64,000 nt of DNA. Origin: Raillietiella orientalis. Its lineage: Eukaryota. The notes under the pieces are model-generated. The model did no database searches, was not told where the DNA came from, and saw only the letters and a list, made by a program, of their open reading frames with translations. The DNA lies in contig JAYWIR010000074.1 in NCBI GenBank assembly GCA_036172245.1, positions 310,001-374,000 on the forward strand, in the 5' to 3' direction. A program made the position numbers and the translations under genes. Below, one piece after another: positions 18,369-64,000 of this stretch (its first letter is position 1; the number at the start of each line of letters is the position of its first letter).

Positions 18369-18379
18369 GGGCTTCGGCG

Positions 18380-37684: not shown

Positions 37685-39779
37685 GAACGGCGTAATCCGG
37701 TGACCCCTGCGACCTCTCGCCCACTCATACCTCGTCCCCGTTCGCTCGGTAAAATTTCCGGTGTCCATGCTTTTATCCCCGTGTGTTCCAGAGCGATCCC
37801 AAAGACCCTTATCCCGTCCTCCTTATTCATTGTTTTTATTTTATTTTGGTTTCTTTGTATTCCCCGCCCTTCCACACCGTTCACAAAACTGTTACTCTGG
37901 CCTGCGTGCCAGCAATTTTACATTCATTCTTGTTCAGTCGTCGGTTGTGAGTTTGGTTCCCAACTGGTATATTTTGTATAATTGCTTTTTCACGTTATGT
38001 TATCTGGAATAAACGTTCGGCGTGACCGGTTGAGAAATCTCCTGCTCTTGTTCTGCAGAGATCACATGGATCTCCAGCAGCAGCGCAAGGTCCAACGATC
38101 CTAGAGTGGCGGCCATTTCTCGTCTCCTGCCGGCGTCTGTCATGCCGTTCACGTTCCAAACGGCGATGCGCAGACGACGGCGAAAGGAGATTCCCGGCAT
38201 TACTGCCGGGAAGATGACGGTGTGGTGGATCCCTCCTCTTCCGAGGCGGGTGAGATGACCATTAGGGTTTCGGCCTCCTCAGGCACCTTGGGTACCTTTC
38301 CGGGTTCAACCTCCTCCATCTCCTCCGTGTCTGTGCGTGGTGGTTATTCGGGTGACGATTCCCGGGATCCTCCCACGCTGATGGCACCCTCGCAGTCGGA
38401 AGTCATCTCCACGCCTTCGCTCTGGATAGGGGCTTTCCGGGGTTTGCTGGACTTTCTTCCAGCCTTCCGGCGGGGTGCCGCGGAGATGGAAACTTGGTTT
38501 CCGGCCTGCGCTTCGGGGTCGGAAGTTACCGACTCCTCGGTGGAGGCTGGACGCCTAACTGCCTTCTTTTTAGCCTTGGAGGAGTCTGGCCTCAACGATG
38601 CAGCCAGCTTCTCCGCCGCACGCTCGAGGACGGCGTCATCGATCACGGTCTCGATGACGGACGCTTCCGCCGGTTCGCTCCCCACGCTGTTGACATTTTC
38701 AACAGTGGGTTGCTCGTCGGTAGCAGCGATTTCTTCCTTGCGGCGTTCGGCGGGAACGCGTTTTACGACGACCCTGGATTCTTTTAAATTCTCTCTAACC
38801 TGCTGTTTTTTATTTTGGTAGGCGAGCTTTTTTTCAATTCGTCGTTCTTACTTCGACTTGTTCTTTTTCGCTGTGGCTTCTTGCCATTCCGACACCTGAC
38901 TGCTTTTGTCGATCTTTTTGGCATTCGCTGCCGGGGTGTCGGCTGAGGCCTGGACCACGGGAGTGGATGGCACAGCTTGAGCCGCAGCCTTCGCCGCCAG
39001 CCTTTTCTGTAGCAGCCCCGTGCGTTTTTTTAGGTTTCTCGCGGAAACAACGCGCACAGCGGATTGTCAACACACTTCCTTTGTGTGGCCCATTGTCCTG
39101 CATACCAGGCACTGTACGTTGGGGCACCTCCTTTTGAGGTGTCCCGACGTGTTGCAGAAGCCACAGTATTTGGGCTTCCCCACGTACCAGAGGTCGACGC
39201 TTTCTCCGCCGACCACCAGTTTGTGGGCAAGGGTAGAGCCCTCCCGAACGGTTACACGGGCAGCCGTGAGGCCGCACTGAACTGTGGTATAGTCCTCGAA
39301 AGTACTAGGCTTGGTCCATACTGCATGGACCGTTCTTTCTTTTCCCAACGCGGCGCGTAACTGTTCTTTCCGCATCCGCGCGGTAACTCCTAAAAGGTGG
39401 ACCACCATACTGTGATCCGCCGTAACGGGAAGGAGCCTGCGTGTCCCCATTACCACGGGGGATTTAAGCAGACGTTGGGCCAGATCTGCATGTTTGCAGA
39501 TCACCTCTACGTACTGCCCCCCGCTACGAATGGTCATAGCGCAGAGCTTTTCTTCTTAAACATCGAGAGCGCGCATCCCCTTCGAAAAGGCGCGCGCACT
39601 CTCAGCAGAATAGAAATTTCTTACCTTGTAGAATAGTGATGGGTTATACCCCTCTTCCACATAGGCTGATAATTCCGCCGCGGCTGCAGGCGATGGCGCC
39701 GACACGACGGCGCTCCACGCCCGCGCTGCAGCGTGGACCGGTTTTGTGAAGGCGGACGCCCCACCTCCTTCGCCACTGA

Positions 39780-40190: not shown

Positions 40191-40199
40191 ACTCGTTGT

Positions 40200-46600: not shown

Positions 46601-47475
46601 TGGGATGTTCGCAGCCTGAAGCTCCGTATGAACGTGCGGAGATGTTCCGCCGCGTCCGGGAGCTTCAGTCAGTCCCCTGGGAGACTCCACCCTGACGAGG
46701 GGGGGCCCCTGTCGCGCGGACGGATCTCGAGGACTAGCGGCTGATGGTCGGACAGCTCGCACGGTAACTTGCCGCGTCTGCCTACGCGAAAGCACAGGTG
46801 CTCTTCAAGAAATACGTGGTGAATGCTGTCATCCATCCCCGGTGCACTGGCCAACTAATTACAGGTGTGCATTGCCATGCACACTTCGTTGACCATGTCA
46901 CGCTCGGGATTCTGCCCATCTGCTTTGAGGCGAACGTTGAAATCGCCTGCAACCAGATGGGCATTCCGCACGCCTGCTTCCGTCATCCAGTCTTCGCGGA
47001 GGGCAAGGAAAAACTCTTTCCTCGCCCTGCTTATCATCGGGTCCGCGCCGCTTGGACCGTACACGTTCGTGACGATCAGATCGATCGAGTCGGATCACCT
47101 AAGAGTCAGCTGGCCGACACGACCGTGATCGTCGAACCGCACGCTCCGACCCGCGGCCGCGACGGCTGGCCGAAGCAGGTAGGCTACACCGCAACTTTTC
47201 GCTCTTCGACACCTGTACCATAGCCGCCCTCCGGAGATCCGCTCGATCTCTTGCGCTTGTTTTGCAGAGATCACGTGGATCTCCTGCAGCAGCGCAAGGT
47301 TGTAGGACTCCAGAAGGGCGGCCACGTCTCGTCTACTGCCGACGTCTGTCATGCCGTTCAAGTTCGAAACGGTGATGCGCAGACGACTGCAGGTGGAGAT
47401 TCCAGGCATTGCTGCTGGTAAGATTAAGGTGTGGTGGAGCCCTCCTCTTGCGAGGAAGGCGGGATGTCCAAAGCC
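43617..47475 (-). mobile_element. E13: KAFD-targeting family element close to E8; degenerate ORF2 47409-~43833, ORF1 mostly lost
   Basis: 3' motif 43617-43647; ORFs 45188..45667, 45716..46036, 46006..46395; MPGISTCSRLRI start. Confidence 0.85.
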
Positions 47476-47499
47476 CTGGGAGCTGCGTTGGCGACTGCG

Positions 47500-48912
47500 A
47501 CGATCCCTGAGCGGGCAGGGCAAGCCTCCACCTGGCGCAACAAAAAGAGACTGGCACAACGCCAGTCTCGCGCGAGGCACTCGGACTCCGAGGTGGAGTC
47601 CGAGTGCAAACAAATAAAGCGCGCATCTCGGGGTAAGCCGATAGCGCGCCGGGCTAAAGTGCGAAAGCACGAGCCTGTTGCCGGAGGCGGTTGCGGCTCT
47701 TGCACGGAGACCGAGGAGAAGATCCTCGGCTCCCAGGACTCAGCTAAGCGCGATGTGGCGGCGAACGGAAGCGATTTCGCTTCCCAATCCGCTCTCCTAC
47801 CAGCTGATTTCTCGCCGGACGGGGCGAGGAGCACGCCGTCATGTCCGCAGCAGTGATGCGTGGACTCGCGTCCGCTCGTCGCGTCAGCGTGGTCTGTTGG
47901 AATGTCAACGGGCTACGTGGTGCTGACAAAAGGCGGACGTTAGCCAACGCTTCGCGCGCGTTCGATCTGGTGCTGCTGCAGGAGATACATAGCATCACCG
48001 TACGGCAGGCATCGGATCTGAAAAAGCGCGCGGGCGGGACGCTACACTGGCGGCAAGGCTCCTCGCACACGTGCGGAGTGGCGTTCCTCGTCCGAGGCAG
48101 GGTGGCGGAGGCGATGCCGAACGTTTGTTTCGACGAGGAAGGTCGTGTGGGCCAACTTGTCCTGAAGTGGTCCGAATCGATCGACCTGGTCGTTACGAAC
48201 ATCAACGCGCCGAGTGGCGGCCGGCATTACGCCCAGCGACTTGCATACCTGGGTGGCTGGCGCAACCGCTGACTCGCTGATTCCGGCCCTAACGTGGCGC
48301 ACCTCCTTGCAGGAAACTTTAACGTCCACCTGCTAACAGAGGAGAGATGCCGCTTGAGGGAGAAGCAACTGGTGAGCGAGATATGCGCGTCCGTTCGCGT
48401 GCAAAACTTGCTTGCTGGTGAGCACGCGATGGAGAGATCGCCGGACCATGCGTTCCTCGATGAACACCTGCTCTCACGAGTAGGTCGGAAAGGGTGCCTG
48501 CTGTCCGCGATTTCGGATCATCCGAGTCTGGAGTTAGAGCTCTTCCCGCCTGGCAAAGGGCCTCCGATGAATGTCTGGAGGTTGCCGGCCGACTGGCTTA
48601 GCAATTCGGAGGCGGCGGTGCATCTTCGCCAACACCTCCGGGGCTTCGCCATGCGTGAACTCGAGGACTGGGACGATCTGAAAAGATCGGTCCGCGAGTT
48701 CTGCTGCCGGTTCCTCTTCCACCTTCTTCTTCGCGGCTCCGGGGAGGGTGTTGCGAACAGCAGATCCTATCTGCAGGCTCGTACCTTCTCCCGACGCCCG
48801 GACGTCCGGCGTCTGGCGGAGTACAAGGCCAGGGCCGAGCGCCAAGTTTGGCAGTCTGGAGCGACTTCTCTGCTCGATGACGCTGGCTAGGAATGCTCGG
48901 CTGCAGCCGAAG
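47500..48912 (+). mobile_element. E14: fragment related to E12 (ORF1 tail and EN from ATG 47856), interrupted by E15
   Basis: SDSEVESE ORF1 tail shared with E12; MRGLASARRVSVVCWNVNG; ORF 48294..48890. Confidence 0.8.
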
Positions 48913-51896
48913 TTTGCCACCCGGATATGCCGGGGCATTTATTATTCTAATTTTCTACAAAAATTAGATAATAAAGTCTTTCAAAAGTTAATTGTGGGAA
49001 ACACTTGGTTTTCCCACCTTGGTTGACGTGTCTGTTGCCGGTGCATAGACCGGTTAGGTCCATTCCCGAGGCGCATGGGAAGGGAATACTAAAACAAAAA
49101 CAAACAAAAAGAGAGATAACGGGGAGGGAAACAGTTGTATGGGGAGAGGGGGAAGGCAGGGAAGGGATCACTGAGCGCCTGGGTCGGTCCTCCGCATCCT
49201 GTTCAGGATGCAGTCAAGTTCTGTTTTAACTCTGAAAGGTAGACGCCACCTTGTCGCCGTCTCAAAAGAGATCGTCGTCCAGTGGATGGCGTCCCTGCAT
49301 CTTGGGCCTCTTATTCTGGCGTGCCACCTTTGCACAATGCCGCGCACGCAGCAGAGGACTGCTAGAGACGCAGCGGGGCGCAGGCCGTCACGCAGAAAGA
49401 GGCGACGGTAAATTTCCTTAGGGTCGCCTACTGGAAGGTGGAGGATTGGGGCGATTCGACTCCAGAGTCCATCCAGGGCGACACAATCGAGGGTAAGATG
49501 CGGGAAGGTTTCTCTTTCTCCGCACTCGACACAGCGGGCATCCACATTTCCCAGTGTCCAGTGAGACAGGCGTGCTCTGCTCAACAGTCCCCAGTGCAGA
49601 AATAGCAACGCCGTCTCCTGCCACTTCAACGGAAGTGTGGCGCAATCCCAACACGCTAGGGGCCACTTCACCTCCTCCGGAGGTATTGCGAGCAGCTCTC
49701 CCCAGCGAGCAAGTCCGTGAGGCGGGACGATCGGGGTAGCAGCGTCCGTGAGCTCCCGAGTCGTCCACGCCTTTAAAGGTTTTTTCCTGCCTCGGATGAG
49801 GCAGGACACTTCCCACGATGCCAGCTCGTTGCTGCTCCTAGTGTTTTTCAGGGAGGACAGAACGGGGGCAAGGGGGCTGAAAGAAGCCCACAGAAACTTC
49901 CGGGGCGTGTTGATAATATCCTGCAGCGGCTGTCGAGCGTACGGTCCTCGTCGTAGGCAGTTGTATTCCGCCTCGGTCGTGCCGTTGATCTTAGCCCACG
50001 CGGAAGCTGACTCCTGAAGCCAGGCAGTGCAGTTCGCGGGGATGCAGGAGATCCAGGTATTCTCCCTCATCAGGGCGACCATCAGGCGCAAATCGGGACC
50101 ACAGTTGGAGAGGCTGCGCTGGTAGGCCACGAGGATCGAGGACAATCCTTCGCAGCCGGTCGCTCTTCTGGCGAGGAGCCGTGCCGGATCGCACAATGGC
50201 GTCATCCATAAGCTAGCCGCAGGGCTAACTTTCGAATTGTTGTTTGAAGTTGGATGCGCTCCAACGTAAGGAGGCCCAAGCCACCATCCCTGCGTGGAGC
50301 GCACAAGTCTTTCAATCGGACTCGCGACCTCGCTGTGCCCCAAAGGGCAGTCCTCAAGAGGGCTGTGGTCCGTCTCTGTATGATGGGAGGGGCGGGGCAA
50401 ACAAAAAGTAAGGGGCGAAGGAGGGGGGCCGCGAACGCGTTCCACACCGCGGCCCGCTCCTGCAAGTAAAACCTGCCGTTCCGGAACGAGCCGATCGCCA
50501 ACTCCACCGTTTGGAGACGGTCGGACCAGGCTTCTGCAACGCAGAAGTCCCCCAACGGAACGCCAAGGTACTTCAAGCACCTGCCCGTGGGGATCCCCAA
50601 GCGGATCCAGTCCGGCCGTCCGGCCCACGCCGCATGGTTGAATAGTTGTGGTGATGTTGTAACGATTGTGGATTTCTCTCTGTTCACCTCGAGGCCCGTC
50701 CCGCGGCGCAGCAACTCAAAGAAATCTTCGAGCGCCGACGCCGGGGTGGACCCGGGGAGCAGGAGCAGAAGGTCGTCGGCGTTGCCGACACGGCAGGCGT
50801 GCCGGGACACGAGCTTGGCAGGGTTGCCAGAGTCTCCCTGTATGCCCTCAGCACCAGCTCGAAGTAGATGCTGAAGAGCAAGGGGCTCAGACTGTCACCC
50901 TGCCTTATGCCACGCCGAACCGGCACGCCGTACACGTGCCGGCCGCTAAAAGAGATGTTGATTAGAGCGAAGCGCCAGCAGGAGCGCACGTAAGCCCGGA
51001 AGACGGCCGGGAATCCCAAGCGTTCCAGGAGCTCCAGAAGCAGTTCCTGGTCGACGCAATCGAACGCTTTACGCAGATCGACTGCGACCGCAAGGGCACC
51101 GGGCGCGGCTCTTCCATGAAGGGCGTCGCCTCCCTGGTCAGAGGAGAATCCAGGATTCTCTTGACCTCCCTGGTCTTCGCTTTGTTGCAACTGCCACCAT
51201 GTACTGGCGAGGAACAGGTTGGCCTCCATGCTTCGTCCGGGAACAGCGTATGTCTGCTCCGGACTCACCACGGATTCCGCCACCCGTCCCAGTCGCTCAG
51301 CCCAAAGCTTGGCAAGCAACTTCGCATCCGCATTCACTACTGTGATGGGACGCCAGTTGCCTACGTTGCGATTGTCTCCTCCTTTCGGCAGGAGACGTAC
51401 TCTAGCTGACCGGAACGATTTGGGAACGTCCCCTTGTTCTCGGATCAGCATGCATAGCCGATGCACCAGGGGGGCCAGCTCCGCCACGAAGCCTTGGTAG
51501 AACTCCGCGGGCAGACCGTCTTCTTCTGGTGCTTTTCTCTTTCGAAGCTTTCCGATGGCGGAGACGATCTCCGCCATCGAGAAAGGCTCCGCGAGTTCAT
51601 GTGCCTGCTCCTCCTGCAGCGCGGGGGCGCCTTGCGGCAGCAAGCGCTGCGCCACGGCGCGCTCCGTTGTTCTACGCGCGTACAAAGAGGAGTAATAGTC
51701 CCGCAGGATGCGGTTTATTCTCGCCGGAGCTAAGCATTCTTGACCTTGGGCGTCCAGCAAGCTGGGCGACCCGGATTGCCAGGTCTGTCGCTCAGCCCCA
51801 GCTTTATACTCCGCCAGGCGTCGAACGTCGGGAGTCCTAGAGTAAAGACGGGCGTGGTGGTATGCCCGGTCGTTCCTCAGCCCTCCGCCGAAAGCC
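48913..51896 (-). mobile_element. E15: 3' part of a divergent element (RT and C-terminal domain), interrupted at the RGFG site by E16
   Basis: ORFs 50684..52267, 50202..50810, 49168..50628; CVECGERETFPHLTLDC; 3' motif 48913-48943. Confidence 0.88.
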
Positions 51897-51905
51897 GGTG
51901 TGGGT

Positions 51906-51916
51906 GGACGTGTTTT
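51906..51916 (+). promoter_or_regulatory. Conserved 5' motif GGACGTGTTTT, putative internal promoter (DPE-like); representative copy
   Basis: Same or similar motif about 10 nt inside all ten visible 5' ends. Confidence 0.6.
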
Positions 51917-52000
51917 TTGGTCGCTCCGCCAGCGCTTGTCTGGGAAGCACCCGGAGTTTTTTAGTGTAGTCAGGTGTAAAGTGTGGGTCGTCGGTGTCCG

Positions 52001-53752
52001 ATGGCAGTTGTGCCAGAGGACACCGCGATGGATGTAGTTGTGGGGGAGGCAAGTCCTCCCACAAGACCTACAGCTATGGGGGCAATAGTCCCTGGAACGT
52101 CTTCGCAGCCGGCGAAGACTTGGAGTGAAATGGTCGCCGCCCCCAGTGCGGAGGCCATGGCCGAGGAAGCCGCCTATCGGGCCTCTGAATACAAGCCATC
52201 GCTTGTATACAAGGTAGGCCCTTTGTTTGAAGGAAACACGGCGCGCTCTTTCAGCAGAGCGCTTCAAAATGCTAATGTCCGTGAGGAAGATCTGGAAGGT
52301 CTGTGCGTGCTCAGCGGGGCGCAGCGGGTTGAGCTGGTGTGCAAGAGCATCAGCCTAGCCGATCGCCTTATAAATACCCCGCTGATCATGGACGGCCGAA
52401 AGATCTTCCCGGTGTCAATGGACCACTCGGTTGTGGTCCACTTGACAGGAATATCCAAGCGCATGACGCGCACTGCAGTGAAGGACGAATTAAGCAAGTA
52501 CGGGGACGTACACGCGCTGTGGCCGAAGCCCACAATCTTTGAGGGCTACGGACGCCACTTCGGGGGCCTCGCCGCGGCACGTGTAACCCCAAAAGACGAA
52601 GCGAAGCTACCCCACAAACTTGAGGTCGCGGGAGAACCGGTAGACCTCTGGTATGCGGGCAAGCCACGGTATTGCGGCTACTGCGATGCGGTCGGACACA
52701 TCCGAAAGAGGTGCCCAAACATCGTATGCTACTTGTGCGGGGAGAAGGGACACGTCCGTCGCGTGTGCCCTAAACGTCCCACCCCGATTCCCTCGGCCGC
52801 CAAAAAGGCGCAAGGGAAACGCGCGGGGAAAGAAAAATTGCAGAACCGTGAAACTGGCCGAGATAAGCTGCCAATAACCCAAGCTCCCAGCGCGGCATCG
52901 GAGAAAAATCTTCCCGAGACCGCAGAGAGAGAACAGGGCTGGCAGCTAGTCAAAGCCAAAAAAGAGAAAAAGGACAAGCATGTCCCGAAGAAAGGAGAGA
53001 AGGCGGCGGCAGGAACAAAAGCTAAATCCGTGTCGCGCGTAAAAACTCTCCGAGAATGCACGGTTACGCTGGAGCGCATTGACGTTCCCGCCGACACCAC
53101 CGCAGGCGATACGGCTTCGATCGATTTTCACGCCGCGACAAATGCGCGCGAAAACCCACCCCCTGCTTGCGAAGAGGGTCAGCCGGACGACAAAAGCGCC
53201 GAAACGGAGGACGCAGCCTTCGAGAAGGCCGCGGAGGAGCTCGCGGCAACGCTTGCCGAACGCGAGAACCCTTCGCGAAAGGGGTTGCATAGGCCGGCAG
53301 CGGCTAAAATGGCCCCCGCAGGTGAGTCGCAACGGGAGGCCGGAAGTGCATCCTCCTCTGCGGAAGCACCACCAAGGAAAGCGGGGCGAAAATCCCAGAA
53401 ACCTCGAAGGTGCATTCCGCCTCCGCGCGAGGGGGATCCAATGGAGGAGGAACCAGTGGATGACAGCGTGGGAGCCCAAGTCGGGCATTACCCACGTGCG
53501 GAAGCCGATGAGAAGGCGACTCCAATGGAGGAGAGTAACCAGGGGTCAGCAATGCCCTCTGAAACCGCCGAACCTGAACCACCCGCACCAATGGATGTGG
53601 GCCAACAGGTACGAACAACACCCCCTTCGCACGGGCAGCCGGAGACGTCGGCACGTAAGAAGGATGGGGAGTTGGTGGGCAAGACGCCAACCCCGTCCAG
53701 CGACCCGCCCCAAAAGGTGGCGGGAGCACCACCGCCAGGTTCCCAGGAATAA
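52001..53752 (+). CDS. E16 ORF1, intact 583-aa gag-like nucleic-acid-binding protein
   Basis: Open frame 51983..53752; ATG 52001 matches the family start MAxxPEDT; CGYCDAVGHIRKRC and CYLCGEKGHVRRVC. Confidence 0.92.
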   Translation: MAVVPEDTAMDVVVGEASPPTRPTAMGAIVPGTSSQPAKTWSEMVAAPSAEAMAEEAAYRASEYKPSLVYKVGPLFEGNTARSFSRALQNANVREEDLEGLCVLSGAQRVELVCKSISLADRLINTPLIMDGRKIFPVSMDHSVVVHLTGISKRMTRTAVKDELSKYGDVHALWPKPTIFEGYGRHFGGLAAARVTPKDEAKLPHKLEVAGEPVDLWYAGKPRYCGYCDAVGHIRKRCPNIVCYLCGEKGHVRRVCPKRPTPIPSAAKKAQGKRAGKEKLQNRETGRDKLPITQAPSAASEKNLPETAEREQGWQLVKAKKEKKDKHVPKKGEKAAAGTKAKSVSRVKTLRECTVTLERIDVPADTTAGDTASIDFHAATNARENPPPACEEGQPDDKSAETEDAAFEKAAEELAATLAERENPSRKGLHRPAAAKMAPAGESQREAGSASSSAEAPPRKAGRKSQKPRRCIPPPREGDPMEEEPVDDSVGAQVGHYPRAEADEKATPMEESNQGSAMPSETAEPEPPAPMDVGQQVRTTPPSHGQPETSARKKDGELVGKTPTPSSDPPQKVAGAPPPGSQE

Positions 53753-54634
53753 CACCTGGACTCGCCTGTCGCCGTCGGATCCGCGCGGCCAGTTGGAATG
53801 TTAACGGGCTGCGCGACGACGGAAACAGACGAGATACAGCCGCCACCTTGCGAGATTTCGACCTGGTGCTTTTGCAGGAGATCCACGTGATCACCGCAAA
53901 AGACGCTCAGGAGATCGAAACGATCGCGGGTGGGCGGTTGTACTGGCGATGCGGCGCCCGCAACACTTGTGGGGTCGCGTTCTTCCTAAAGCCAGCCATT
54001 AACGCGGCCGTGAAGCACGTGCGCTTTGGGGACGACGGACGGATCGGCCAACTGATTCTCAGATGGTCCGATTCGATCGACCTCATCGTCACCAATGTGT
54101 ACGCTCCTAGCGGTAAACAGGGATACCAGCAGCGCAACGCGTTACTGGAAACCTTAAAGCGCGAATGGCTGGTGGACGCGGACGTGCGAAAGGCGCATCT
54201 GATAGCAGGGGATTTCAACGTCCGTCTGCTCTCAGATCAGCCCGGAGCACAGGGGAACGCGATCAACGAGTTGTGCGCCGCCATGCGCGCGCGCAACTTG
54301 TTGACAGAAATAAGCGGGATGGTCAACAGCGTGGACCACGTCTTCCTCGACGAAGACCTGTGCACACGGGTCGGAAAACGAGGGACACTTGGATCGACGC
54401 TGTCGGACCATTCCCGGTTAGTATTCGAGATGCGCCCGCGCGACAAGGGACCGCCATCCAGGGATTGGAGTATGCCAGGGGACTGGACGCGCCTGTCAGG
54501 AGCGAAAGAACATCTTCGCGAATTCCTGCGAGGCGTCACCCTCCAGAGTCTCGCGGATTGGGACCTATTTAAGGACTCGGTCCGGGAGTTCTGCGAACAG
54601 TTCCCAGTGCAACGTCTGCCCCGGGGATACGGCG
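53752..54634 (+). CDS. E16 ORF2 5' half (APE endonuclease), ACA start, interrupted by E17
   Basis: WNVNG, LQEIH, NVYAP, GDFN, VDH, SDH; no stop up to the insertion. Confidence 0.88.
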
Positions 54635-54665
54635 TTATAACCCGGGTACGCCCGGGGCGTTTATT
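54635..54665 (-). terminator. Conserved 3' terminus AATAAA + CCCGGG-CGTA-CCCGGG hairpin, no poly(A); representative copy
   Basis: Variant present at all eleven visible 3' ends. Confidence 0.7.
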
Positions 54666-54839
54666 ATTAAACTTTACATGCGTAGTACAAGGCCCCACCA
54701 CGGCCCTAAGCACAGGACCTGTCGGGAAACCGGGACGCAGCCCGGCGTGGCACTCCCCGACAGCGAAGGGGGATGGGGATAAGACAAAAGGTAAAATAAA
54801 AAGAAACAAACAAAAAGAAGTTGGAGGGCAGGGAAGGGA

Positions 54840-57800
54840 TCACTGCTCGCTGTGGAGAGGGCCCATCCGTCGAACGAAGCCCTCGAGGTCAGTCTCATAT
54901 TCCCCAGTTGGGGCCATCCGGCAGCTCTTCGCAAGAAGCGTTGGGCATATGGGATGACATCCCTCGCGTGTTGACCCACTCCTTCCTTGTTGGTGTCGCT
55001 CCATGCCGCCACGATGCCTCGGACGCAGCACAAGGCTGCAAGGGCTGCGGCTGGCTGCAAAGCGTCCTTCACGAAGAGGGGCCGAAGAACGCCACTAGGG
55101 GAACTGCCCGTTGGGAGACCGAGGATCGTCCCAAACCGTTCCCAAAGGGTACGAAGGGCAGCACAGTTCACAATAAGGTGGGAGAGCGATTCCCGCTCTC
55201 CGCACCTGACACACGCAGGATCCACAACTCCTCTTGTCCAGTGAGAGCGGCGTGCGTTGCAGGGTAAACCCCAATGCAACAACAGCAACGCCGACTCTTT
55301 CCACTTAAGAGGCAGGATCCTGGATTCCTGAAGAAGCGGGGGCCACTTCAGCACATCCATAGGGATGGCCAGCAGCTCGCCCCATCTTCTTAGTCCTCGC
55401 GGCTGGACGCTCGGGGTCGTGGCGTCTGCCAGTTCTCCTGTTGTCCAGCCGCTGATCAACTTTTCGCGTCCCTCGATGCAGCAGGAGACTTGCCACCTTG
55501 GCGTCCGGCTGCTGTGAAGTGCCCTCTTCAGGAAGGGCAGCGCCGTAGCTAGACAGGTCGTCTCTGCCCACGTGCATCTTGCTGGACTCTCCAGGAGATT
55601 CCGCAGCGTGCAGCGGGCGTAGGGGCCGCATCGGAGACGATTCCACGTCTCGTGGCTTGTCTTGTTAACCACTGCCCATGTTCCAATATTTTCCTCCAGC
55701 CAGGCGGGGGAGTTGGCGGGGCAGCAAACCATCCAGCTGTTCTCCTTGGCCAATGTTGCCATGCGCCCGAGCAGTAGGCCGCATCTTCGCATCTTCCGGC
55801 CACGGCTGAGAAGAAAAGACGCGAGTCCATCGCACCGGGACACACGGCTGGCCAGGAGGCGGGCTGGAGTGCACCAAGGGGTGCACCACATCTTCGCTGC
55901 GAGGGCGAGGGTTCGCCACCGCAGCTGCTTCTCCACGCGCTCCAGCGTCAGGAGGCCAAGACCGCCGTCCCGACGCGGAGCGCACAAGTCCTTCAGTGGG
56001 ACTCGGGGCCTCCCCTTGCCCCAAAGGGCGATACGGAGGAGGTCCTTCGTCCTTTTCTTGGATTCCACGGTGGGAGGGCAAACAAAAAGCAAGGGGCGGA
56101 GGATGGGGGCCGCGAAGGCGTTCCAAACCGCGGCCCGTTCCGGCAAGTGAAACTTGCCTTCCAGGAACGGGCCGATCGCCGTCTCGACTTTCTGGAGGGA
56201 GCTGGACCACGCTTCCGCAGGGGAGTAGTCCCCCAACGGCACACCAAGGTACTTGAAGCAACACGCCGTGGGGATCCCCAGACGGACCCAGTCCTGCTGC
56301 CCTGCCCACGCCGCACCTATTGGCACAACCGACGACTTCGCCCTGTTAACATGCAGTCCGGTCCCGCGGCTGAGCAGATCGAAGAAGTCTCCGACCGCCT
56401 TCGCCGGGGTGGACATTGGCAACAAGAGCAGAAGATCGTCGGCGTACGCTGCTACGGCGGGCGTGCCGGGGCACGAGCACGGCAAGGGGGCCAAAGTCAC
56501 CCTGTACGCTCTCAGCACCAACTCAAAGTAGGTGCTAAAGAGCAGGGGGCTGAGGCTATCGCCCTGCCTTATGCCCCGCCGCACCGGCACGCCATACACC
56601 TTCGGTCCACTGAAACAGACGGTAATCATCGCATTCCGCCAGCAAGAGCGCAGGTAGGAAATCAGGGAGGGTGGGAAGCCCATGCGACCCAGGAGCTCCA
56701 AGAGGAGTTCCTGGTCTACACAGTCGAACGCCTTGTGGAGATCGACTGCGAGCGCTAGGGCCCCCTTCCCTGCCCGGGGGTCCCTTCCCAGCCCGGCTGG
56801 CGGCCCCAATGTGGGGTTGCCGACTTTCCCTATCCCTTTCTTCTCTCTTCTCTGCAGGTGCACCCATGTGCTTGCGAAGAAGAGGTTGGGATCCATACTT
56901 CGCCCGGGAACAGCATAAGTCTGCTCCGGGCTAATTACGGATTCTGCCACCTGCCCCAGACGCGAAGCCCATAGCCCTGCTATCAACTTGGCGTCCGTAT
57001 TCACGATTGTGATCGGACGCCAGTTCTTCAAATTCCTGAGGTCTCCCCCTTTCGGAAGGAGCCTCACTCTGGCTGACCGAAACGAGGCGGGAACATCGCC
57101 TTCGTCTCGGATCAGCCTTGTCAGCTGAAGCAGCAGGGGCGCCAGCCCTTCCGCGAAGCTCTGATAGAACTCCGCGGGCAAGCCGTCTTCCCCTGGAGCT
57201 AACCGCCTCTTGAGCCTTTTGATACCGGCGAGAATTTCGCCGGTGGTAAAAGGCTCGTCGAGGCTTTCCATCTCTTCCTCCCCTATTGCCGGGGTGCCAT
57301 CCGGAAGCAAGCGCCGAGAGGCGTTTCGATCCGGGGGCTCCCTGGCGTAAAGGGAGGAATAAAAACTCCGCACGAGATGCCGTACCGACGCCGGGGACGA
57401 ACATTCCCGGCACTGGTCGTCCAGCAAGCTGGCCGACCCGTATTGCCAGGTTTGGCGTTTGGCCCCGGCACGGTACTCGGCCAGGCGACAAACATTAGGG
57501 GTTCTCTCGTACCTACGAGCCTGTAAATAGGCCCGATGGTTGCGAGCACCCTCGCCGAATCCGGGGGGCAGGCGATCCAGGGAAAACTGCTCACAGAACT
57601 CGCGGACCGATTCCTTAAAAAGGTCCCAGTCCTGGAGATTCCGGAGCGTGACGCCTCTAAGGTATTCGCGAAGGTGTTCCTTCGCACCTGAGAGTCGCGT
57701 CCAGTCCCCCGGCAGACGCCAATCCCTGGATGGCGGTCCTTCGTCGCGAGGCCGCATCTCGAAAATTAGCCGGGAATGGTCCGACAACGTCGACACAACC

Positions 57801-58435
57801 CTCCCCCGTTTGCCGACGCGTGAACACAGGTCAGCGTCCAGGAAGACGTGGTCGATGCTGCGGACCATTCCTTTCTCACCCGCGAACAAGTTGCGCGTAC
57901 GCATGGCAGCGCACAACTCGTTCATCGCGTTCACTTGTGTTTCCGGCTCACCTGTTAGCAGGCGGAGATTGAAATCTCCCGCTATCAGGTGCGCCTTTTG
58001 CACATTGGTATCCGCCAGCCAGTCGCGCTTCAGGGTTTCCAGCAGCCTGGTGCGGTCGCGGTAACCCTGTTTGCCGCTGGGGCCATACACGTTTGTGACG
58101 ATTAAGTCGATCGAGTCGGACCAGCTGAGAATCAGCTGACCGATCCGACCGTCGTCATCAAACCGCACGCCCTTTACGGCAGCGTCGATGGCCGGCTTCA
58201 CGAAGAACGCGACCCCGCAGGTGTTGCGGAGGCCGCATCGCCTATACAGCCGACCCCCCGCGATCGTCTCGATTTCCTGGGCGTCTGCCGCGGTGATCAC
58301 GTGGATCTCCTGCAGCAGGGCCAGGTCGAGCTCACGCAGGGTGTCGGCTGTATCTCGCCTGTTGCCGTCGTCGCGCAGCCCGTTGACGTTCCAACAGGCG
58401 GCGCGAATCCGACGGCGACTGGCGAGCCCAGGTGT
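54840..58435 (-). CDS. E17 ORF2 (APE-RT-zf), open except for a frameshift about 20 codons before the natural stop
   Basis: ORF 54674..58300 (1208 aa) extends upstream to ACA at 58435; the family C-terminus DLEGFVRRMGP..* lies in another frame ending at 54840. Confidence 0.9.
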
Positions 58436-60312
58436 TAGTCCAGGGAAAACGGCGATGCGGCGTCCGCCACCTGCTGGGACGGGACGCTAGGTGGAGGAGG
58501 AGGAGGGACAGGTACTGAAGGCACCTTTTCCTCCTCCTCCATCGGTGCCGGCGCGTCGGCCGGATCACCCGCACGTGGAGTCGCGCCTACCTTTTCGCCT
58601 TCCTCCATGGGTTCGGGCTGCTCAGGTTTCGCGACTGCAGGGAGGACTTCACCCCCCTGCTCTCCCTCCTCCATGGGGGTGACCGACTCGACGGCTTCCG
58701 GGCGTGGGTATTCCCCCTCCGGGATTCCCACGCTGCCGCTTCCTTCCGGTTTCTCCTCCTCGCTGGTGGAGGGGAGGCGCCTCCTGGGTTTCTGGGACTT
58801 GCGTCCCGACTTCCTGGGGGATGCCTCCGAGGAGGAGGATCCGCTTCCGGCCCCCAGGTCGCACTCACCTGCGGGGGCCTTCTTCGTCGGAGCCGACCTG
58901 CGTACGCCCTTGCGCGACGGGGTTTCGCGCTCGGCGAGCGTTGCTGCGAGCTCCTCCGCCGCTTTCTCGAAGGCCGCGTCTTCGCCAGGGGCGACCGTTG
59001 CCGCGGGCTGCTCCGCGACCTTATCGAGCGCGGCGTCATCGTTGACGGCGAACGTTGCCGCGGGCTCCTCCGCGACTTTATCGAGCGCGGCGTCCTGGCT
59101 GTCGGCGCGCGAGTCTCGCGTCTCACCCTCTACACGTAGATTGGGCTCGTCCACGCGAGTATTCATCGCGTCCGCATCAGCTGTTCCGCGAACATTGCCG
59201 CGGGCGGACTCGGCAGGAACGGCTAAGCGTTCCAGTGCCACCGAGCATTCGCGGAGCTTTTGTTTTGAAAGCGGCGCGGCTTTTTTCTTCTTGTTGCCGG
59301 CAGTTTTCTTCTCCGAATTTTCTTCTATCATCACCTTCTTTTTTTTCTCTTTTCTGGCCTGAACCAGCTGCCAACCCTCCTCCATTCCCGCGTCCACGGG
59401 AGCTATTTCCTCCGACGTATGTACGGGAGGAAGGGAGGCTGGCAGTTGGGAACGGCCATTTTCGCGAGCTGGTCTTTCTACCAGCTTTCCACGTTTTCCC
59501 TGCGCCTTTTTGGCGGCAGGGGGCCCCGGGGTGGGGCGCTTGGGGCACACGCGCCGAACGTGACCCTTTTCGCCGCATAGGTGGCACACAATGTTCGGGC
59601 ACCTTTTTCGTAGATGCCCTACTGCATTGCAGTAGCCACAAAATTAGCGTTTTCCCACGTACCAGAGGTCCACCGCTTCTTGGCAGACCTCCAGCTTGTG
59701 GGGAAGCGCACCACCCTCTTTCACTGTGATACGCGCCGCAGCTTGAACTCCGAAAAGGCTATTGTAGCCTTGGAAAATCGTGGACTTCGGCCACAACGCG
59801 TGCACTTCTGCGTGCTTTTCTAACTGTTCGCGAACCGCTGACCTTGTCATGCGACTGGGGATCCCAGTGAGGTGGACCACCACCGAGCGCTCCATCTTTA
59901 GAAGCAAGATCTTCCGACCATCAACGATCAGCGGGTCGGTGATCAGGTGTCGGGCCAAGGTGATATCCTTGCATACCACCTCGACCCGCTGCCCGCCGCT
60001 GAGTACGCAGAGGCCGTCGAGATCTTTTTCGAAAATATTGGCGTTCTGCAGCGCCTTCGTAAAGGCGCGTGCAGTTTGCCCATCGAAAAGGTTGCCTACC
60101 TTGTAAACTTGAGAGGATTTATACCCCGCTTTCTTGTAGGCTTCCATCTCGGCCATGGCTTCCACGCTGGGCACGGCCACCATGGCGCTCCATGACCTCG
60201 GTGTCGCCGGGGACGATTCCGGGGCGGATGCCCCTGATCCAGTAGGCTGTGGGGACGAACAAGCCTCCATCATGCCTACTTCCATCGCGGTGTCCTCTGG
60301 CAACGCTGCCAT
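58435..60312 (-). pseudogene. E17 ORF1 with a single in-frame TAA at 59644-59646
   Basis: ORFs 59644..60336 and 58435..59589 share a frame; two CCHC knuckles follow the stop. Confidence 0.88.
58925..59095 (-). repeat. 57-bp (19-aa) tandem triplication in E17 ORF1
   Basis: DAALDKVAEEPAATFAVND / DAALDKVAEQPAATVAPGE / DAAFEKAAEELAATLAERE; single copy in E16. Confidence 0.85.
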
Positions 60313-60411
60313 CGGACACCGACGATGTGCACGCACAAATCACTAAAGAAGAAAAAACACTCGCTTTGCCACGCAGGCGGAGCGCAGGAAAAGCACGTCC
60401 GCTCTCCACAG

Positions 60412-63132
60412 CGGGGTTTCGGCGAAGGGGCTCGCAACGAACGCGCGTATTTGCACGCGCGTCGTCACGAGAGGAACCCCAATGTCCGTCGCCTGGCCCA
60501 ATACCGCGCCGGAGCCGAGCGACAAGCCTGGCAATCCGGGTCAGCCAGCATGCTGGATGACCTGGGTCGGGAACGTTCGTCAGCGTCTGCGGTACGGAAT
60601 CTCGTGCGGTGTTTTTATTCCTCCCTTTACGCCAAAACGCCACCCGAACAAGACGCCTCGCGGCGATTGCTCATGAGTGGTTCCGTGGCGATAGGGGAGG
60701 AGAAGAGAGAAAGCCTCGATGAGCCTTTCACGACCGGTGAAATTCTCGCCAATATCAAAAGGCTCAAGAGGCGTAAGGCGCCAGGGGAGGACGGCTTGCC
60801 CGCGGAGTTCTTTCAGAGTTTCGCGGACGAGCTGGCGCCCCTGGTGCTCGAGTTAACAAGGCGAATCCGAGACGAAGGCGATGTTCCCGCCTCGTTTCGG
60901 TCAGCCAGGGTGAGGCTCCTCCCGAAGGGAGGAGACCTCAGGAAACTTTGCAACTGGCGTCCGATCACGATTGTGAACACGGACGCCAAGTTGATTGCCG
61001 GGCTGTGGGCGTCGCGATTGGGGCAGGTGTCCAATTCCATAATTAGCCCGGAGCAGACAAACGCTGTTCCCGGGCGAAGTATGGAGGACAACCTCTTCTT
61101 CGCGAGCACATGGATGCACGCGCAGCGGAGTAATAAAGAAGGGGAAGGGAAAATTTGCAACCCTACTTTGAAGCCGCCAGTGGGACAGGGTAGGGAACCT
61201 CATGCAGGAAAGGGGGCCTTAGCGATCGCAGTCGACCTCCATAAGGCATTCGACTGTGTTGACCAGGAACTCCTCTTGGAGCTCCTGGGTCGCATGGGCT
61301 TCCCACCCTCCTTGATTTCTTACCTGCGCTCTTGCTGGCGGAACGCGATAATCTCAATTACTTTCAGTGGACAAAAGGTGTATGGCGTGCCGGTGCGACG
61401 GGGCATAAGGCAGGGCGACAGCCTCAGCCCCCTCCTTTTTAGCACCTACGCTGATTTGGTGCTGAGAGCGTACAGGGTGACTTTGGCACCCTTGCCGAGC
61501 TCGTGCCCCGGCACGCCAGCCGTAGCGGCGTATGCCGACGATCTTCTGCTCCTCTTACCTATGTCCACCCCGGCGAAGGCGGTCGGAGATTTCTCCGACC
61601 TGCTTAGCCGTGGGGCCGGATTACAGGTTAACAGGGCGAAGTCGTCAGTGTTGCCAGTTGGAGCGACGTGGGCAGGGCAGCAGGACTGGGTCCGTCTGGG
61701 GATCCCCACGGTGAGGTGCATCAAGTACCTCGGTGTGCCGTTGGGGGACTTCTCCCCTGCGGAAGCGTGGTCCAGCTGCCTCCAAAAAGTCGAGACGGCG
61801 ATCGGCCCGTTCCTGGAAGGCAAGTTTCACTTGCCGGAACGGGCCGCGGTTTGGAACGCCTTCGCGGCCCCCATACTCCGCCCCTTGCTTTTTGTTTGCC
61901 CCGCCCCCGTGGAATCGAAAAAGCGGACGAAGGACCTCCTCCGCATCGCTCTTTGGGGCAAGGGGAGGCCCCGAGTCCCTTTGAAGGACTTGTGCGCTCC
62001 GCGTCGGGACGGCGGTCTCAGCATCCTGACGCTGGAGCGCGTGGAAATCCAGCTGCGATGGCGGACCCTCGCCACCGCAGCGAAGATGTGGAGCACCGCT
62101 TGGTGCATTCCGGCCCGTCTCCTGGCCAGGCGTATGTCCCGCTGCGAAGGACTCGCATCGTTTCTTCTGTGCCCTGGCCGGAAGATTCGAAGATGCGGTC
62201 TACTGCTCGGCCTCATGGCAACCCTGGCAAAGGAGAACGACTGGATGGTTTGTGGCCCTGCCAACTCCTCCGCTTGGCTGGAAGAGACTGCTGGCACCTG
62301 GGCCAAGCTGAACCAGAGGTGCGAAGACCAGATGAACTGCCTGCGAGTCGGCATTTACGCCCGCCGAACTCTCCGTGAAATACTTGAATTTCCACCGAGT
62401 TGCACGTGGGCGGAAGGCACACCCCTTGTTACGGCGATGCCCTTTCTCCAAAGGGCGCTTCACGAAAGCCGGAAGCCAAGGTGGCAAGTCTGCTGCCGTA
62501 TCGCGGGCAGAGAGAAGACGATGAGCGGCTGGACCATGGGAGAGTTGACAGATGCAACGACCCCTAGTATCCAGCCGCGTGGATTAAGAAGATGGGGCGA
62601 GCTGCTCGGCATTCGATTGGATGACCTGAAGTGGCCCCCGGTTCTACTTGGATCCAGGATTCTTCCCCTGAAGTGGCAAGAATCGGCGCTTCTGTGGCTG
62701 CATTGGGGTCTACCCTGCAACGCGCGCCGCTTCCACTGGACGCGGGGAAGAGTAAATCCTGCGTGTGCCAGGTGTGGGGAACGCGAGTCGCTCCCCCACC
62801 TCTTAGTTAAATGCCCTGCCGTCCGGATTCTTTGGGAACGTCTTCAAACGGCACTTGGGATACCGGATGCAGGCAATGGTGAATGTATCTTCAGTCTTGT
62901 CTTCGTGCGGGACGCCCTCAGTCCAGCTGCAGCCCTGGCAGCACTTTGCTGCATTCGTGGTATAGTGGCGGCCTGGACTGATGCCGAAGATGAAGACTGC
63001 ATCGTGAGGAATGTCATCGAGTATGCTTCTCGCTTCCTGCAGAGAGCTACCCGATGGACCCATCTAGGAAGGATGAAAAAGGAACAAGAAGGCATCCTGC
63101 AAAGGATGGGCCCTCCCAGCAGTTTTCTGTGA
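60412..63132 (+). CDS. E16 ORF2 3' half (RT and C-terminal zinc finger), open frame
   Basis: ORF 60325..63132 resumes at RGFGEGARNE; DLHKAFD, QGDSLSPLLF, YADD, KYLG, CARCGERESLPHLLVKC. Confidence 0.92.
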   Translation, partial: RGFGEGARNERAYLHARRHERNPNVRRLAQYRAGAERQAWQSGSASMLDDLGRERSSASAVRNLVRCFYSSLYAKTPPEQDASRRLLMSGSVAIGEEKRESLDEPFTTGEILANIKRLKRRKAPGEDGLPAEFFQSFADELAPLVLELTRRIRDEGDVPASFRSARVRLLPKGGDLRKLCNWRPITIVNTDAKLIAGLWASRLGQVSNSIISPEQTNAVPGRSMEDNLFFASTWMHAQRSNKEGEGKICNPTLKPPVGQGREPHAGKGALAIAVDLHKAFDCVDQELLLELLGRMGFPPSLISYLRSCWRNAIISITFSGQKVYGVPVRRGIRQGDSLSPLLFSTYADLVLRAYRVTLAPLPSSCPGTPAVAAYADDLLLLLPMSTPAKAVGDFSDLLSRGAGLQVNRAKSSVLPVGATWAGQQDWVRLGIPTVRCIKYLGVPLGDFSPAEAWSSCLQKVETAIGPFLEGKFHLPERAAVWNAFAAPILRPLLFVCPAPVESKKRTKDLLRIALWGKGRPRVPLKDLCAPRRDGGLSILTLERVEIQLRWRTLATAAKMWSTAWCIPARLLARRMSRCEGLASFLLCPGRKIRRCGLLLGLMATLAKENDWMVCGPANSSAWLEETAGTWAKLNQRCEDQMNCLRVGIYARRTLREILEFPPSCTWAEGTPLVTAMPFLQRALHESRKPRWQVCCRIAGREKTMSGWTMGELTDATTPSIQPRGLRRWGELLGIRLDDLKWPPVLLGSRILPLKWQESALLWLHWGLPCNARRFHWTRGRVNPACARCGERESLPHLLVKCPAVRILWERLQTALGIPDAGNGECIFSLVFVRDALSPAAALAALCCIRGIVAAWTDAEDEDCIVRNVIEYASRFLQRATRWTHLGRMKKEQEGILQRMGPPSSFL

Positions 63133-63372
63133 TCCCTTCCCGGCCCTCCAAACTTTTTTTTTTTTGTGGTTTGTTTTTCTATTTTCTTTTATTTTTCTTT
63201 TTTCCCCCATCCCCCTCCACTGCCGAGGAGAGCCACACCGGGCTGCGTCCCGGTGTCACGGCAGTTCCGGTATTGCGTGGCCGTCAGTGGGGCCTTGTAC
63301 CACGTTCTGTATTGACCGTTGAAATGTTTTTAATAAACGTCCCGGCGTATCCGGGTGGCATCGCCGAATCCC

Positions 63373-64000
63373 TTGGCGAGTGGACGTGTGTTTCCTTCGC
63401 TCCCGAGTGAGTCGACAGGAAGCGGTTTTTTTCTATTGTTGTTTTGTGTGGAACATCGTTGGTGTCCGATGGCAGCGATGCCTGCGGACACAACGATGGA
63501 GGTAGGTGTGGGGGAGGCTTGCCCACCCCCACAGCCTACAGAATCAGGGGCGTCCGCCCCGGAATCGCCCTCGCCGCTCAAGGCGAGGAGCTGGAGCGCC
63601 ATGGTGGCCGCGCCGAGCGCGGAAACCATGGCCGAGATGGCGGCCTACCGGGCAGCTGGGTACAAGCCCAGCTTGGTTTACCAGGTAGGCAATCTCTTTG
63701 ACGGGCGAACTGTACGCGCTTTTTCGAAAGCGCTGCAGAACGCAAACGTGTTGGAAAAGGACCTTGACGGTCTATCCGTGCTAAGCGGGGGTCAGCGCGT
63801 TGAGGTTGTCTGCAAGGACATCACCTTGGCGCAAAGCTTGATAACCACCCCGCTGAACGTGGACGGACGCAAGATCCTACCAGTCACGATGGACCGCTCC
63901 GTAGTGGTCCATCTGACAGGGATCACCAGCCGCATGACGCGGTCTGCGGTTGGTGATCAGTTAAGAAAGTACGGGGATGTTCACGCGCCTTGGCCAAAGG
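63373..64000 (+). mobile_element. E18: 5' end of an RGFG-targeting element, ORF1 from ATG 63469, runs off the window
   Basis: GGACGTG at 63382; ORF1 start nearly identical to E7. Confidence 0.88.

Follow-up and report, generated by a model that had tools for sequence, protein, structure and literature searches.

A clade of L1-group LINEs inserts repeatedly and antisense at a single nucleotide within the ORF2 of related LINEs

We analysed a 64-kb stretch of DNA (hereafter the window, at its full length) and confirmed that one clade of LINEs inserts repeatedly, and backwards, at a single nucleotide of the ORF2 of related LINEs, members of its own family included. The window is a nest of L1-group LINEs in which LINE-homologous segments run end to end in tblastn and blastn maps, with a GC content of 55–62%. 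These elements carry an ORF1 with a CCHC knuckle and an ORF2 with an APE endonuclease (EN), a reverse transcriptase (RT) and a zf-RVT domain, and an A-run or poly(A) tail is found at none of the 11 LINE 3' ends in the window. As a functional class, the inserting elements are predicted to be naturally sequence-specific LINEs with other LINEs as their landing pad, given that they share the same 3' junction nucleotide and the same orientation.

Thirteen copies have the Gly-Phe-Gly codons that lie between the EN and RT domains, and aligning them with protein anchors defined the position. In four of them (C/E3, E5, E15 and E16) the break falls in one and the same alignment column, directly 3' of the host-sense sequence TTCGGCG (site 1). 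Seven inserts occupy this site (D, E6, E7, F, E16, E17 and M), each antisense to its host; all site-1 counts given here come from this one 64-kb window. The elements and sites are located as follows.

7909-7921, + strand: site 1 of host C/E3, CGGGGATTTCGTG, decayed; followed by the 3' end of D from 7922
7922-10018, - strand: D, site-1 element in host C/E3, its 3' end adjoining 7909-7921
12712-12724, + strand: site 1 of host E5, CCGAGCTTCGGCG; followed by the 3' end of E6 from 12725
12725-18370, - strand: E6, full-length site-1-clade element, first of three in a head-to-tail array in E5
18371-18379, - strand: 9-bp spacer CGCCGAAGC (minus-strand reading) between E7 and E6
18380-29605, - strand: E7, site-1 clade, in two pieces (18380-20483 and about 26040-29605)
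29606-29614, - strand: 9-bp spacer CGCCGAAGC between F and E7
29615-31020, - strand: F, 3'-terminal 1.4 kb of an E16-like element, third array member
48913-51898, - strand: E15, host of a different lineage; its ORF2 starts at codon ~308, site 1
51886-51896, + strand: site 1 of host E15 (itself on the - strand), CGCCGAAAGCC; followed by the E16 5' end at about 51899
51899-54634, + strand: left part of E16 (5' UTR, ORF1, ORF2 codons 1-311), from tblastn/blastn maps, the 5' junction and the EN tree
54622-54634, + strand: target duplication copy 1 in host E16, CGGGGATACGGCG; followed by the 3' end of E17 from 54635
54635-60411, - strand: E17, full-length 5777-bp site-1-clade LINE, EN motifs aligned to human L1 EN
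60412-60424, + strand: target duplication copy 2, CGGGGTTTCGGCG, where the host frame resumes
60425-63361, + strand: right part of E16 (ORF2 codons 312 to end and a 3' UTR ending in ...CCGGGTGGCAT)
63362-63370, + strand: 9-bp spacer CGCCGAATC between the E16 3' end and the M 5' end, a target copy in a head-to-tail pair
63371-64000, + strand: M, 5' part of a further site-1-type element, cut by the window end

The four junctions reported by the initial annotation (7909-7921, 12712-12724 and 54622-54634, and at a 5' end 51886-51896) lie where it had placed them, with agreeing junction sequences, and the three spacers at 18371-18379, 29606-29614 and 63362-63370 are further site-1 junctions beyond its list. 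The motif that it proposed, GGNTTCGGCG, holds as a consensus and fails as an exact sequence at the 3'-junction hosts, where C has three mismatches, E5 one and the upstream copy in E16 one; since none of the three carries it exactly, we treat GGNTTCGGCG as the consensus. E17 is flanked, as had also been claimed, by a 13-bp duplication with two mismatches (54622-54634 versus 60412-60424, 11 of 13 positions identical). The first copy is the end of the Gly-(Phe/Tyr)-Gly codons of host E16; past E17 the E16 frame indeed resumes as RGFGEGARNE, and removing E17 together with one copy of the duplication restores the host frame. Contigs of X1, a DNA sequencing run from outside the assembly (small share, 0.19), were compared as well. 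One of them joins 54627 to 60418, a gap of 5790 that equals the 5777 bp of E17 plus 13 bp; judged by this joint, the contig represents an E16-like copy without the interruption.

All six clade 3' ends abut a CGCCGAA-like sequence (four are exact, one differs at a single letter, and D agrees at 4 of 7). On its two strands together, the window contains CGCCGAA 27 times, or 2.1e-4 per position, which gives a binomial P of 3e-14 for at least four exact matches among six ends. The window's remaining five 3' ends (A, E8, K, E15 and G) are those of other lineages; none of the five has a site-1 flank, and each adjoins some other sequence. Rather than lying mostly at unrelated sequences, the clade's termini are thus at the site at six of six 3' ends and five of six visible 5' ends, and five of the seven site-1 elements reach their full-length 5' end. 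E17 terminates at its 3' end in ...AATAAACGCCCCGGGCGTACCCGGGTTATAA and lacks poly(A). Throughout the clade a conserved 3' motif, AATAAACGYCCCGG...CCGGGT, is followed by 6 nt, and no microhomology was seen between element tails and target. A 3' hairpin was considered: CCGG..CCGG can pair, yet its folding energies are ordinary (z +0.4 to -1.5, for 11 stretches of 40 nt at 3' ends, the E15 stretch being misplaced by about 9 nt). Because of these ordinary values, and because a palindromic stem bars a covariation test, CCGG..CCGG is termed here a conserved motif rather than a demonstrated structure.

The inserting elements encode the expected machinery. The ORF2 of E17 comprises 1270 codons without a stop, and its ORF1 has one in-frame TAA. 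Pfam matches (Exo_endo_phos, 9e-12; RVT_1, 3e-21) identify an N-terminal apurinic-like endonuclease and a reverse transcriptase. The best solved relative of this ORF2 in the PDB is human L1 ORF2p (E 2e-47), human L1 EN is a further match (E 7e-8), and no chain named R1 is among the PDB matches listed. The EN motifs N (WNVNGL), E (LLQEIH) and D-N (AGDFN) of E17 align with human L1 EN, and the later ID-H and SDH motifs (SIDHVF and LSDHSRL) are kept across the window copies; these motifs are taken to contain the catalytic residues. The EN of the window copies also has variable loops at codons ~177-190 and ~201-210. Searching with the RT region gave the Xenopus Tx1 149-kDa protein as best named match (E 1e-41, 32% identity), and searching with the whole ORF2 gave only two distant matches; neither protein search returned an alga-named protein. 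LINE-like clusters are present in a protein atlas, and a metagenome scan with the E17 ORF2 found seven loci, all just 25–37% identical and of no use for junctions.

Insertion at site 1 is confined to one clade. In a tree of 1781 RT-region columns, the six inserters group together with support 100/100, and E8 and K, whose 3' ends lie at KAFD codons of the RT (the KAFD site), form a separate clade, also with 100/100. The hosts come from at least three lineages according to the EN tree, C and E16 falling inside the inserting clade and E5 and E15 outside. The insertions form sequential nests: C holds D, D holds E5 and E5 holds E6, E7 and F; elsewhere, E15 holds M and E16, and E16 in turn, inserted at site 1 of E15 with a 5' end uncertain by about 4 nt, holds E17. 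E7 is itself split at its RT KAFD codons by antisense E8 (about 20484-26040). Two apparent complications were set aside. E15 has its 3' end at codon ~365 of L, but E15 lies outside the site-1 clade. Likewise, F and the adjacent H could be taken for one element hosting G, but F is E16-like (93–99% identical to E16) and H is of the KAFD-site family; since F runs into H in register and the two adjoin different hosts at their outer ends, we read them as a recombination between two insertions.

The motif alone is not sufficient for insertion. TTCGGCG occurs 27 times in the window and the 10-mer GGNTTCGGCG nine times: four at junctions, one at E17's own empty site and four elsewhere. None of these last four has received an insert (a single RT position accounts for three, in B, H and K, and the ORF1 region of C for one), and they predict a role for the RRGG that follows the nick or for positions farther upstream. 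The own sites of E6 and E17 are perfect yet empty, and the 5' end of C, which the EN tree places within the clade, adjoins codon ~500 of B, away from site 1. Between lineages, the Gly-Phe-Gly codons of site 1 are kept but their DNA is not. The idea that site 1 was picked as the best-conserved DNA was rejected, as the between-lineage identity of its 21-nt segment, 0.46, lies below the ORF2 mean of 0.57 (18th percentile). The duplication copies of the E15 array differ at 2 of 9 positions; these mismatches and the 2 of 13 at E17, which is apparently young, are unexpected under simple duplication with little decay.

We consider it very probable that the clade (D, E6, E7, F, E16, E17 and M) moves by target-primed reverse transcription into a fixed position in the ORF2 of related LINEs. 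More specifically, the element's EN would nick the host sense strand directly 3' of 5'-TTCGGCG-3', with which the Gly-Phe-Gly codons of the EN–RT linker end and which is usually followed by purine-rich RRGG; at E17, this first-strand nick would fall on the host-sense strand directly after 54634. The freed 3'-OH would prime cDNA at a fixed point, a few nucleotides past the conserved 3' motif, and such priming would explain why there is no poly(A) tail and why the insert is always antisense to its host. A cut of the second strand 9–13 bp away would produce the target duplication, which recreates the site, so that later copies could land there and build head-to-tail arrays with 9-bp spacers. The hosts would be those lineages still carrying the DNA motif, the clade's own members among them. 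What we infer is that the EN domain reads the site, that nicking begins with the host-sense strand, and in which order array members arrived; EN is the main determinant of target choice in APE-type LINEs according to passages of PMC4494074 (citing Takahashi and Fujiwara 2002).

Alternatively, one or two ancestral junctions might have been multiplied within the repeat island through segmental duplication, unequal crossing-over or gene conversion. Ectopic recombination is present in the window, F switching in register to another family at about 31020-31050, and when the C|D junction is compared with the other two, host sides (63–72% identity) and insert sides (66–68%) are similar. Against such copying, the junctions are nested (C>D>E5>E6 and E15>E16>E17) and so represent successive events that cannot be copies of each other; E5|E6 and E16|E17 are 66% identical on their host sides and 88% on their insert sides; the hosts are of at least three lineages; and array members E6 and E7 belong to a different subclade from F. 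We therefore regard copying as very improbable, and the repeated independent hits in different hosts proposed by the initial annotation are borne out by the nests, the flank identities and the host lineages, which indicate insertions independent of one another. Still less credible are assembly artefacts, that is, false repeat joins at a short shared word. A window made up to 100% of nested repeats is difficult to assemble, and the support from outside the assembly consists of contigs of one run rather than of reads. However, a shared word of 7–13 nt is much too short for misleading an assembler, the joins fall at complete element termini and go with a duplication and with reading frames that are restored, and the independent X1 contigs give the uninterrupted form, skipping exactly the element plus the duplication.

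A different question is whether the site is read by EN alone. In an alternative that we judge distinctly unlikely, it would be read largely through RNA-DNA pairing: putative read-through transcripts including flanking target would anneal to the nicked target, the flanking copy being the 3' CGCCGAAGC or the 5' duplication copy, and the target would be inherited with the donor's flank. Target sequence borders every clade donor in the window at either end and would be included in any read-through RNA, and insertions with a resolved 3' junction are antisense to their host in every lineage in the window. A donor-derived 5' copy would also explain the mismatches (E17 2 of 13, E15 array 2 of 9) despite the open ORF2 of E17, and for R1 it is described that the RNA's upstream target sequence can anneal to the cDNA (passages of PMC2718515). 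On the other hand, the last nucleotides of the elements (..CAA, ..CAT, ..TAA) are not complementary to the primer end ..GGCG, and ordinary mutation could give the same mismatches: the empty site CGGGGATTCGGCG, inferred from the coordinates of the X1 joint, is one letter from each copy. Pairing would, moreover, be no substitute for a nick at a fixed bond.

Target-primed insertion guided by EN can be compared with known systems. In a quick ML tree of RTs (41 rows and 456 columns, with animal Tx1, plant L1 and Mucorales L1 among the rows), the window clade (SH-aLRT 100) has a long branch and joins these three groups in a polytomy. Elements of the Tx1 clade (Tx1L of Xenopus; Keno, Kibi and Koshi) resemble it in combining an APE-type EN with an RT and in nucleotide-precise, fixed-orientation insertion into another multicopy transposon. 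Passages of PMC4494074 give as examples crocodilian Tx1-Mar in Mariner-N4_AMi and Tx1-8_Crp and Tx1-4_AMi in LTR retrotransposons, describe tandem copies of the Tx1-dependent SINEU-3 that sandwich the target duplication, and report that the clade occurs in animals and also targets snRNA genes. In contrast to DNA transposons, LTR elements, snRNA genes or microsatellites, the target here is coding sequence of LINEs of the same family group, the own clade included, and the polytomy of the 41-row tree does not place the window clade inside Tx1.

R1, which inserts into arthropod 28S rDNA, is similar in its rigid 3' junction and variable second nick: the passages of PMC2718515 describe a rigid bottom-strand nick, a flexible top-strand nick, duplications of 8–14 bp (9–13 bp in the window clade) and head-to-tail arrays with target duplication between members, explained by re-insertion into the duplication. 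R1 differs in that its target is a host rRNA gene rather than LINE ORF2, and the sequence evidence for the window elements, among the PDB matches listed, points to L1. Zepp of Coccomyxa ('Chlorella' C-169) and ZeppL-1 of Chlamydomonas form nested L1-type clusters in which new copies target existing ones, and Zepp is GC-rich at 61% (passages of PMC8226300 and PMC3446292). PMC3747384 (its Table 3) lists Zepp and L1-1_CR with a terminal (A)n, which none of the 11 3' ends of the window has; and whereas Zepp arrays, as far as these passages describe them, consist mostly of 5'-truncated 3' ends, full-length 5' ends prevail among the site-1 elements. Neither a fixed nucleotide site nor an antisense rule nor several lineages with separate sites are mentioned in the same Zepp passages.

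A broader reading, which we hold to be unlikely, is that these sister LINE lineages form a closed community inhabiting only each other's and their own ORF2, each with its own precise antisense site, the choice of which is inherited at least in part through RNA. If this were true, inheritance would run through read-through flanking target or through pairing of sense RNA with a host copy, and a new site-specific lineage could arise from just one off-target insertion into a LINE. It would also explain the antisense rule, the mismatched duplications of young insertions and the differences in site between sisters.

What appears to be novel is the target, a LINE coding motif hit by target-specific LINEs of the same family group. 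In the passages that a full-text literature search yielded, which for Zepp were secondary to Higashiyama 1997, no LINE is reported to hit a fixed position within LINE coding sequence. Target-specific LINEs serve as models from nature for inserting long DNA in a programmable way and without breaks. In the same window, a sister lineage targets another motif, the RT KAFD codons, with four junctions; the site-1 and KAFD lineages thus offer closely related ENs with differing known targets, a comparison for the determinants of specificity in L1-type ENs. LINE-only islands have been proposed as centromeres in some green algae. Homing to site 1 would provide a nucleotide-resolution mechanism by which such LINE-only islands may grow through self-nesting, and it raises a population question, that of an element destroying copies of its own family at each move.

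GC content is 55-62% along the whole window, and LINE proteins are found throughout it: an ORF1 containing a CCHC knuckle, and an ORF2 that combines APE-type endonuclease (EN), reverse transcriptase (RT) and zf-RVT (stop-to-stop frames and Pfam). With the 5777-bp element E17 (minus strand, 54635-60411) as the reference for blastn and tblastn against the window, we partitioned the entire 64 kb into some 20 pieces of elements, named here by letters or E-numbers. ORF2 of E17 comprises 1270 codons with 0 stops, while ORF1 has a single in-frame TAA at 59644-59646 (E17 nt 766-768). The closest solved structure to ORF2 is human L1 ORF2p (E 2e-47), and the N, E and D-N motifs align between the two ENs.

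The initial annotation reported four insert ends at the Gly-Phe-Gly codons between EN and RT of LINE ORF2 (site 1). All four junctions are real, and three 9-bp spacers mark further ones; site 1 therefore carries seven elements, 7/7 of them antisense to their host.

Junctions at site 1
7921/7922: host C (also E3) up to 7921, 3' end of D from 7922
12724/12725: host E5 up to 12724, 3' end of E6 from 12725
54634/54635: host E16 up to 54634, 3' end of E17 from 54635
~51898: host E15 (minus strand) stops, 5' end of E16 begins
18371-18379, minus strand: 9-bp spacer CGCCGAAGC between E7 and E6, head-to-tail
29606-29614, minus strand: 9-bp spacer CGCCGAAGC between F and E7, head-to-tail
63362-63370: 9-bp spacer CGCCGAATC between head-to-tail E16 and M

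As had been proposed, E17 is flanked by a 13-bp duplication with 2 mismatches (CGGGGATACGGCG and CGGGGTTTCGGCG, identical at 11/13 positions), and the E16 host frame resumes past it, reading on as RGFGEGARNE. Related sequence is present in one public run only (share 0.19), stored as contigs. In one run contig (91% similar to E16), 54627 is joined directly to 60418; the 5790 bp left out correspond exactly to E17 and a single copy of the duplication. Judging by the joint coordinates and a one-letter ambiguity, the uninterrupted form would read CGGGGATTCGGCG, one letter off each E17 flank. In a second contig, to which we give little weight, E17-like ends meet tail to head, separated by different letters. 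The region is present in 13 window copies, four occupied (C, E5, E15, E16) and nine unoccupied (A, E6, E7, E8, G, J, K, L, E17). The breaks fall in one alignment column in 4/4 cases, right after host-sense TTCGGCG, a word that has decayed in two of the hosts (TTTCGTG in C; in E16, TACGGCG at the upstream copy).

The inserting elements are related. In a maximum-likelihood tree of 1781 RT-region columns from the 12 copies having that region, six elements inserted at site 1 (D, F, E16, E6, E7, E17) group in one clade with support 100/100; the F row held ~650 nt later assigned to H, and F grouped with E16 all the same. E8 and K, whose 3' ends lie at the RT KAFD codons, form a separate clade (100/100), and A, E15 and G fall outside both. 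The window holds 11 true 3' ends, ten from a pattern search (one further row was spurious) and that of G from its junction sequence; a poly(A) tail was found at 0/11. The five non-clade 3' ends adjoin other sequences, so the site follows the lineage. As originally suggested, more than one lineage serves as host: the EN tree places C and E16 within the inserting clade (100/99) and E5 and E15 outside it, and the clade thus strikes itself plus others.

CGCCGAA occurs 27 times on the two strands of the window; after the clade 3' ends it is exact in 4/6 cases and has one mismatch in 1/6, and D matches 4/7 letters (binomial P 3e-14). The junctions are nested one in another (C > D > E5 > E6/E7/F and E7 > E8; in a second stack, E15 > M/E16 and E16 > E17, the outer element holding the inner) and therefore represent successive events. 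Comparing E5|E6 with E16|E17, identity over 400 bp is 66% on the host side and 88% on the insert side, which together with the nesting upholds the claim of independent hits on one site. Between C|D and the other junctions both sides are similar (63-72% against 66-68%), and here the nesting is the one argument for independence.

The 10-mer GGNTTCGGCG has nine matches in the window: four at junctions, one at E17's own empty site and four unhit elsewhere (three sharing an RT position, in B, H and K, plus a match in the ORF1 region of C). Judging from these unhit matches, the recognised sequence must be longer than 10 nt. RRGG (AAGG, GAGG, AGGG) follows hit or own-clade sites, and GTCG follows the unhit RT-region matches. 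Gly-Phe-Gly is kept in copies of other lineages that vary in the 3-4 nt leading up to the nick (GGAG, GGGA, GGGG), and no such copy is hit. Identity between lineages across the 21 nt surrounding the nick is just 46% (18th percentile of ORF2), thus the peptide is conserved but the DNA word is not. C, a clade member by the EN tree, has its full-length 5' end away from site 1, at 5112-5116, head-to-head with B at ORF2 codon ~500, and its 3' end beyond the window; this junction may have arisen by off-target insertion, through deletion of the target or in a subsequent rearrangement.

The RT KAFD codons (host-sense ..CACAAGGCGTTCGA) are another recurrent site, holding four second-lineage junctions, all antisense. 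Site-1 and KAFD-site lineages alternate as hosts (D > E5 > E7 > E8). Two further antisense 3' junctions are single.

Junctions at the KAFD site and single junctions
10018/10021: 5' end of E5 in D, KAFD site
20483/20484 and ~26040: both ends of E8 in E7, KAFD site, 14-bp duplication with 2 mismatches
43614/43615: 3' end of K in J, KAFD site
~40010: 5' end of H in I, KAFD site
~3424/3425: A in B, single antisense 3' junction, ORF2 codon ~1069, zf-RVT region
48912/48913: E15 in L, single antisense 3' junction, ORF2 codon ~365, flank CTTCGGCTGCAGCC

At ~31020-31050 (minus strand) an in-register switch separates F below (93-99% E16-like) from H above (81-88% like E8/K). Because the outer junctions occupy separate hosts (E5 at site 1, I at the KAFD site), the switch appears to be the product of two insertions recombining ectopically; it removed E5's expected continuation. 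ORF2 codons ~147-536 are deleted internally in H at 31860/31861, where ~1166 bp of E8 (22649 to 23815) have no counterpart. The lineage that diverges most, G (~32120-38036), lies antisense in H just past the EN LLQEIH motif (codons ~66-72, AEQAQEI), with a visible 15-17-bp duplication (4 mismatches); it is a single event and so carries no evidence of specificity. The 5' part of J (40195-41580) resembles no other window piece; at ~40190 it comes after I (E15-like, codons 585-645) with orientation unchanged, which makes this the only non-antisense junction in the window, visible on its 5' side alone. Similarity of K to its relatives ends at ~47470, leaving most of ORF1 missing; K meets L within 47470-47813 (similarity of L to J starts at 47537), at a junction matching none of the recurrent sites. 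A common 5'-terminal motif, (G)GACGTGTTTT(C/T)C, occurs ~11 nt from the first base in lineages whose targets differ (5' ends at 60411, 18370, 29605, 63371, ~51899, ~20484, ~10021 and ~32120); it could serve as an initiator or as an internal promoter element.

Taken together, the junctions fit a target-specific APE-type LINE. In the mechanism we propose, the host-sense strand would be nicked first, always at one bond, priming would start at a fixed RNA point just past a conserved 3' motif and leave no A-tail, the second nick would fall 9-13 bp from the first, and re-insertion into the duplication would build arrays. The same behaviours are described for R1 in the text covered (PMC2718515); if arrays grow as in R1, E6 would have arrived before E7 and E7 before F, and M would have preceded E16. 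By analogy with R1 and Tx1 elements (PMC4494074), EN is the likely reader of the site. A less likely rival explanation is that the RNA contributes to the choice of site 1, in keeping with mismatched duplications in apparently young copies and an antisense orientation uniform across all lineages.

Nearest in behaviour are Tx1-clade elements, with fixed landing places in other transposons according to the text covered (PMC4494074). The best named protein match is a Xenopus Tx1 protein, yet an RT tree with outside references does not resolve the window clade within Tx1, leaving it in a polytomy with the Tx1 group, plant L1 and fungal L1. Zepp/ZeppL share self-nesting with the window LINEs (PMC8226300, PMC3446292, text covered) but end in (A)n (PMC3747384, text covered), unlike the window LINEs, which lack an A-tail; fixed sites are not described in the text covered. 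Transposons as a target class are already in print; LINE coding sequence, own family included, was not found as a target in the full texts searched. The insert ends first reported at site 1 are confirmed, and the interpretation first put forward is supported.
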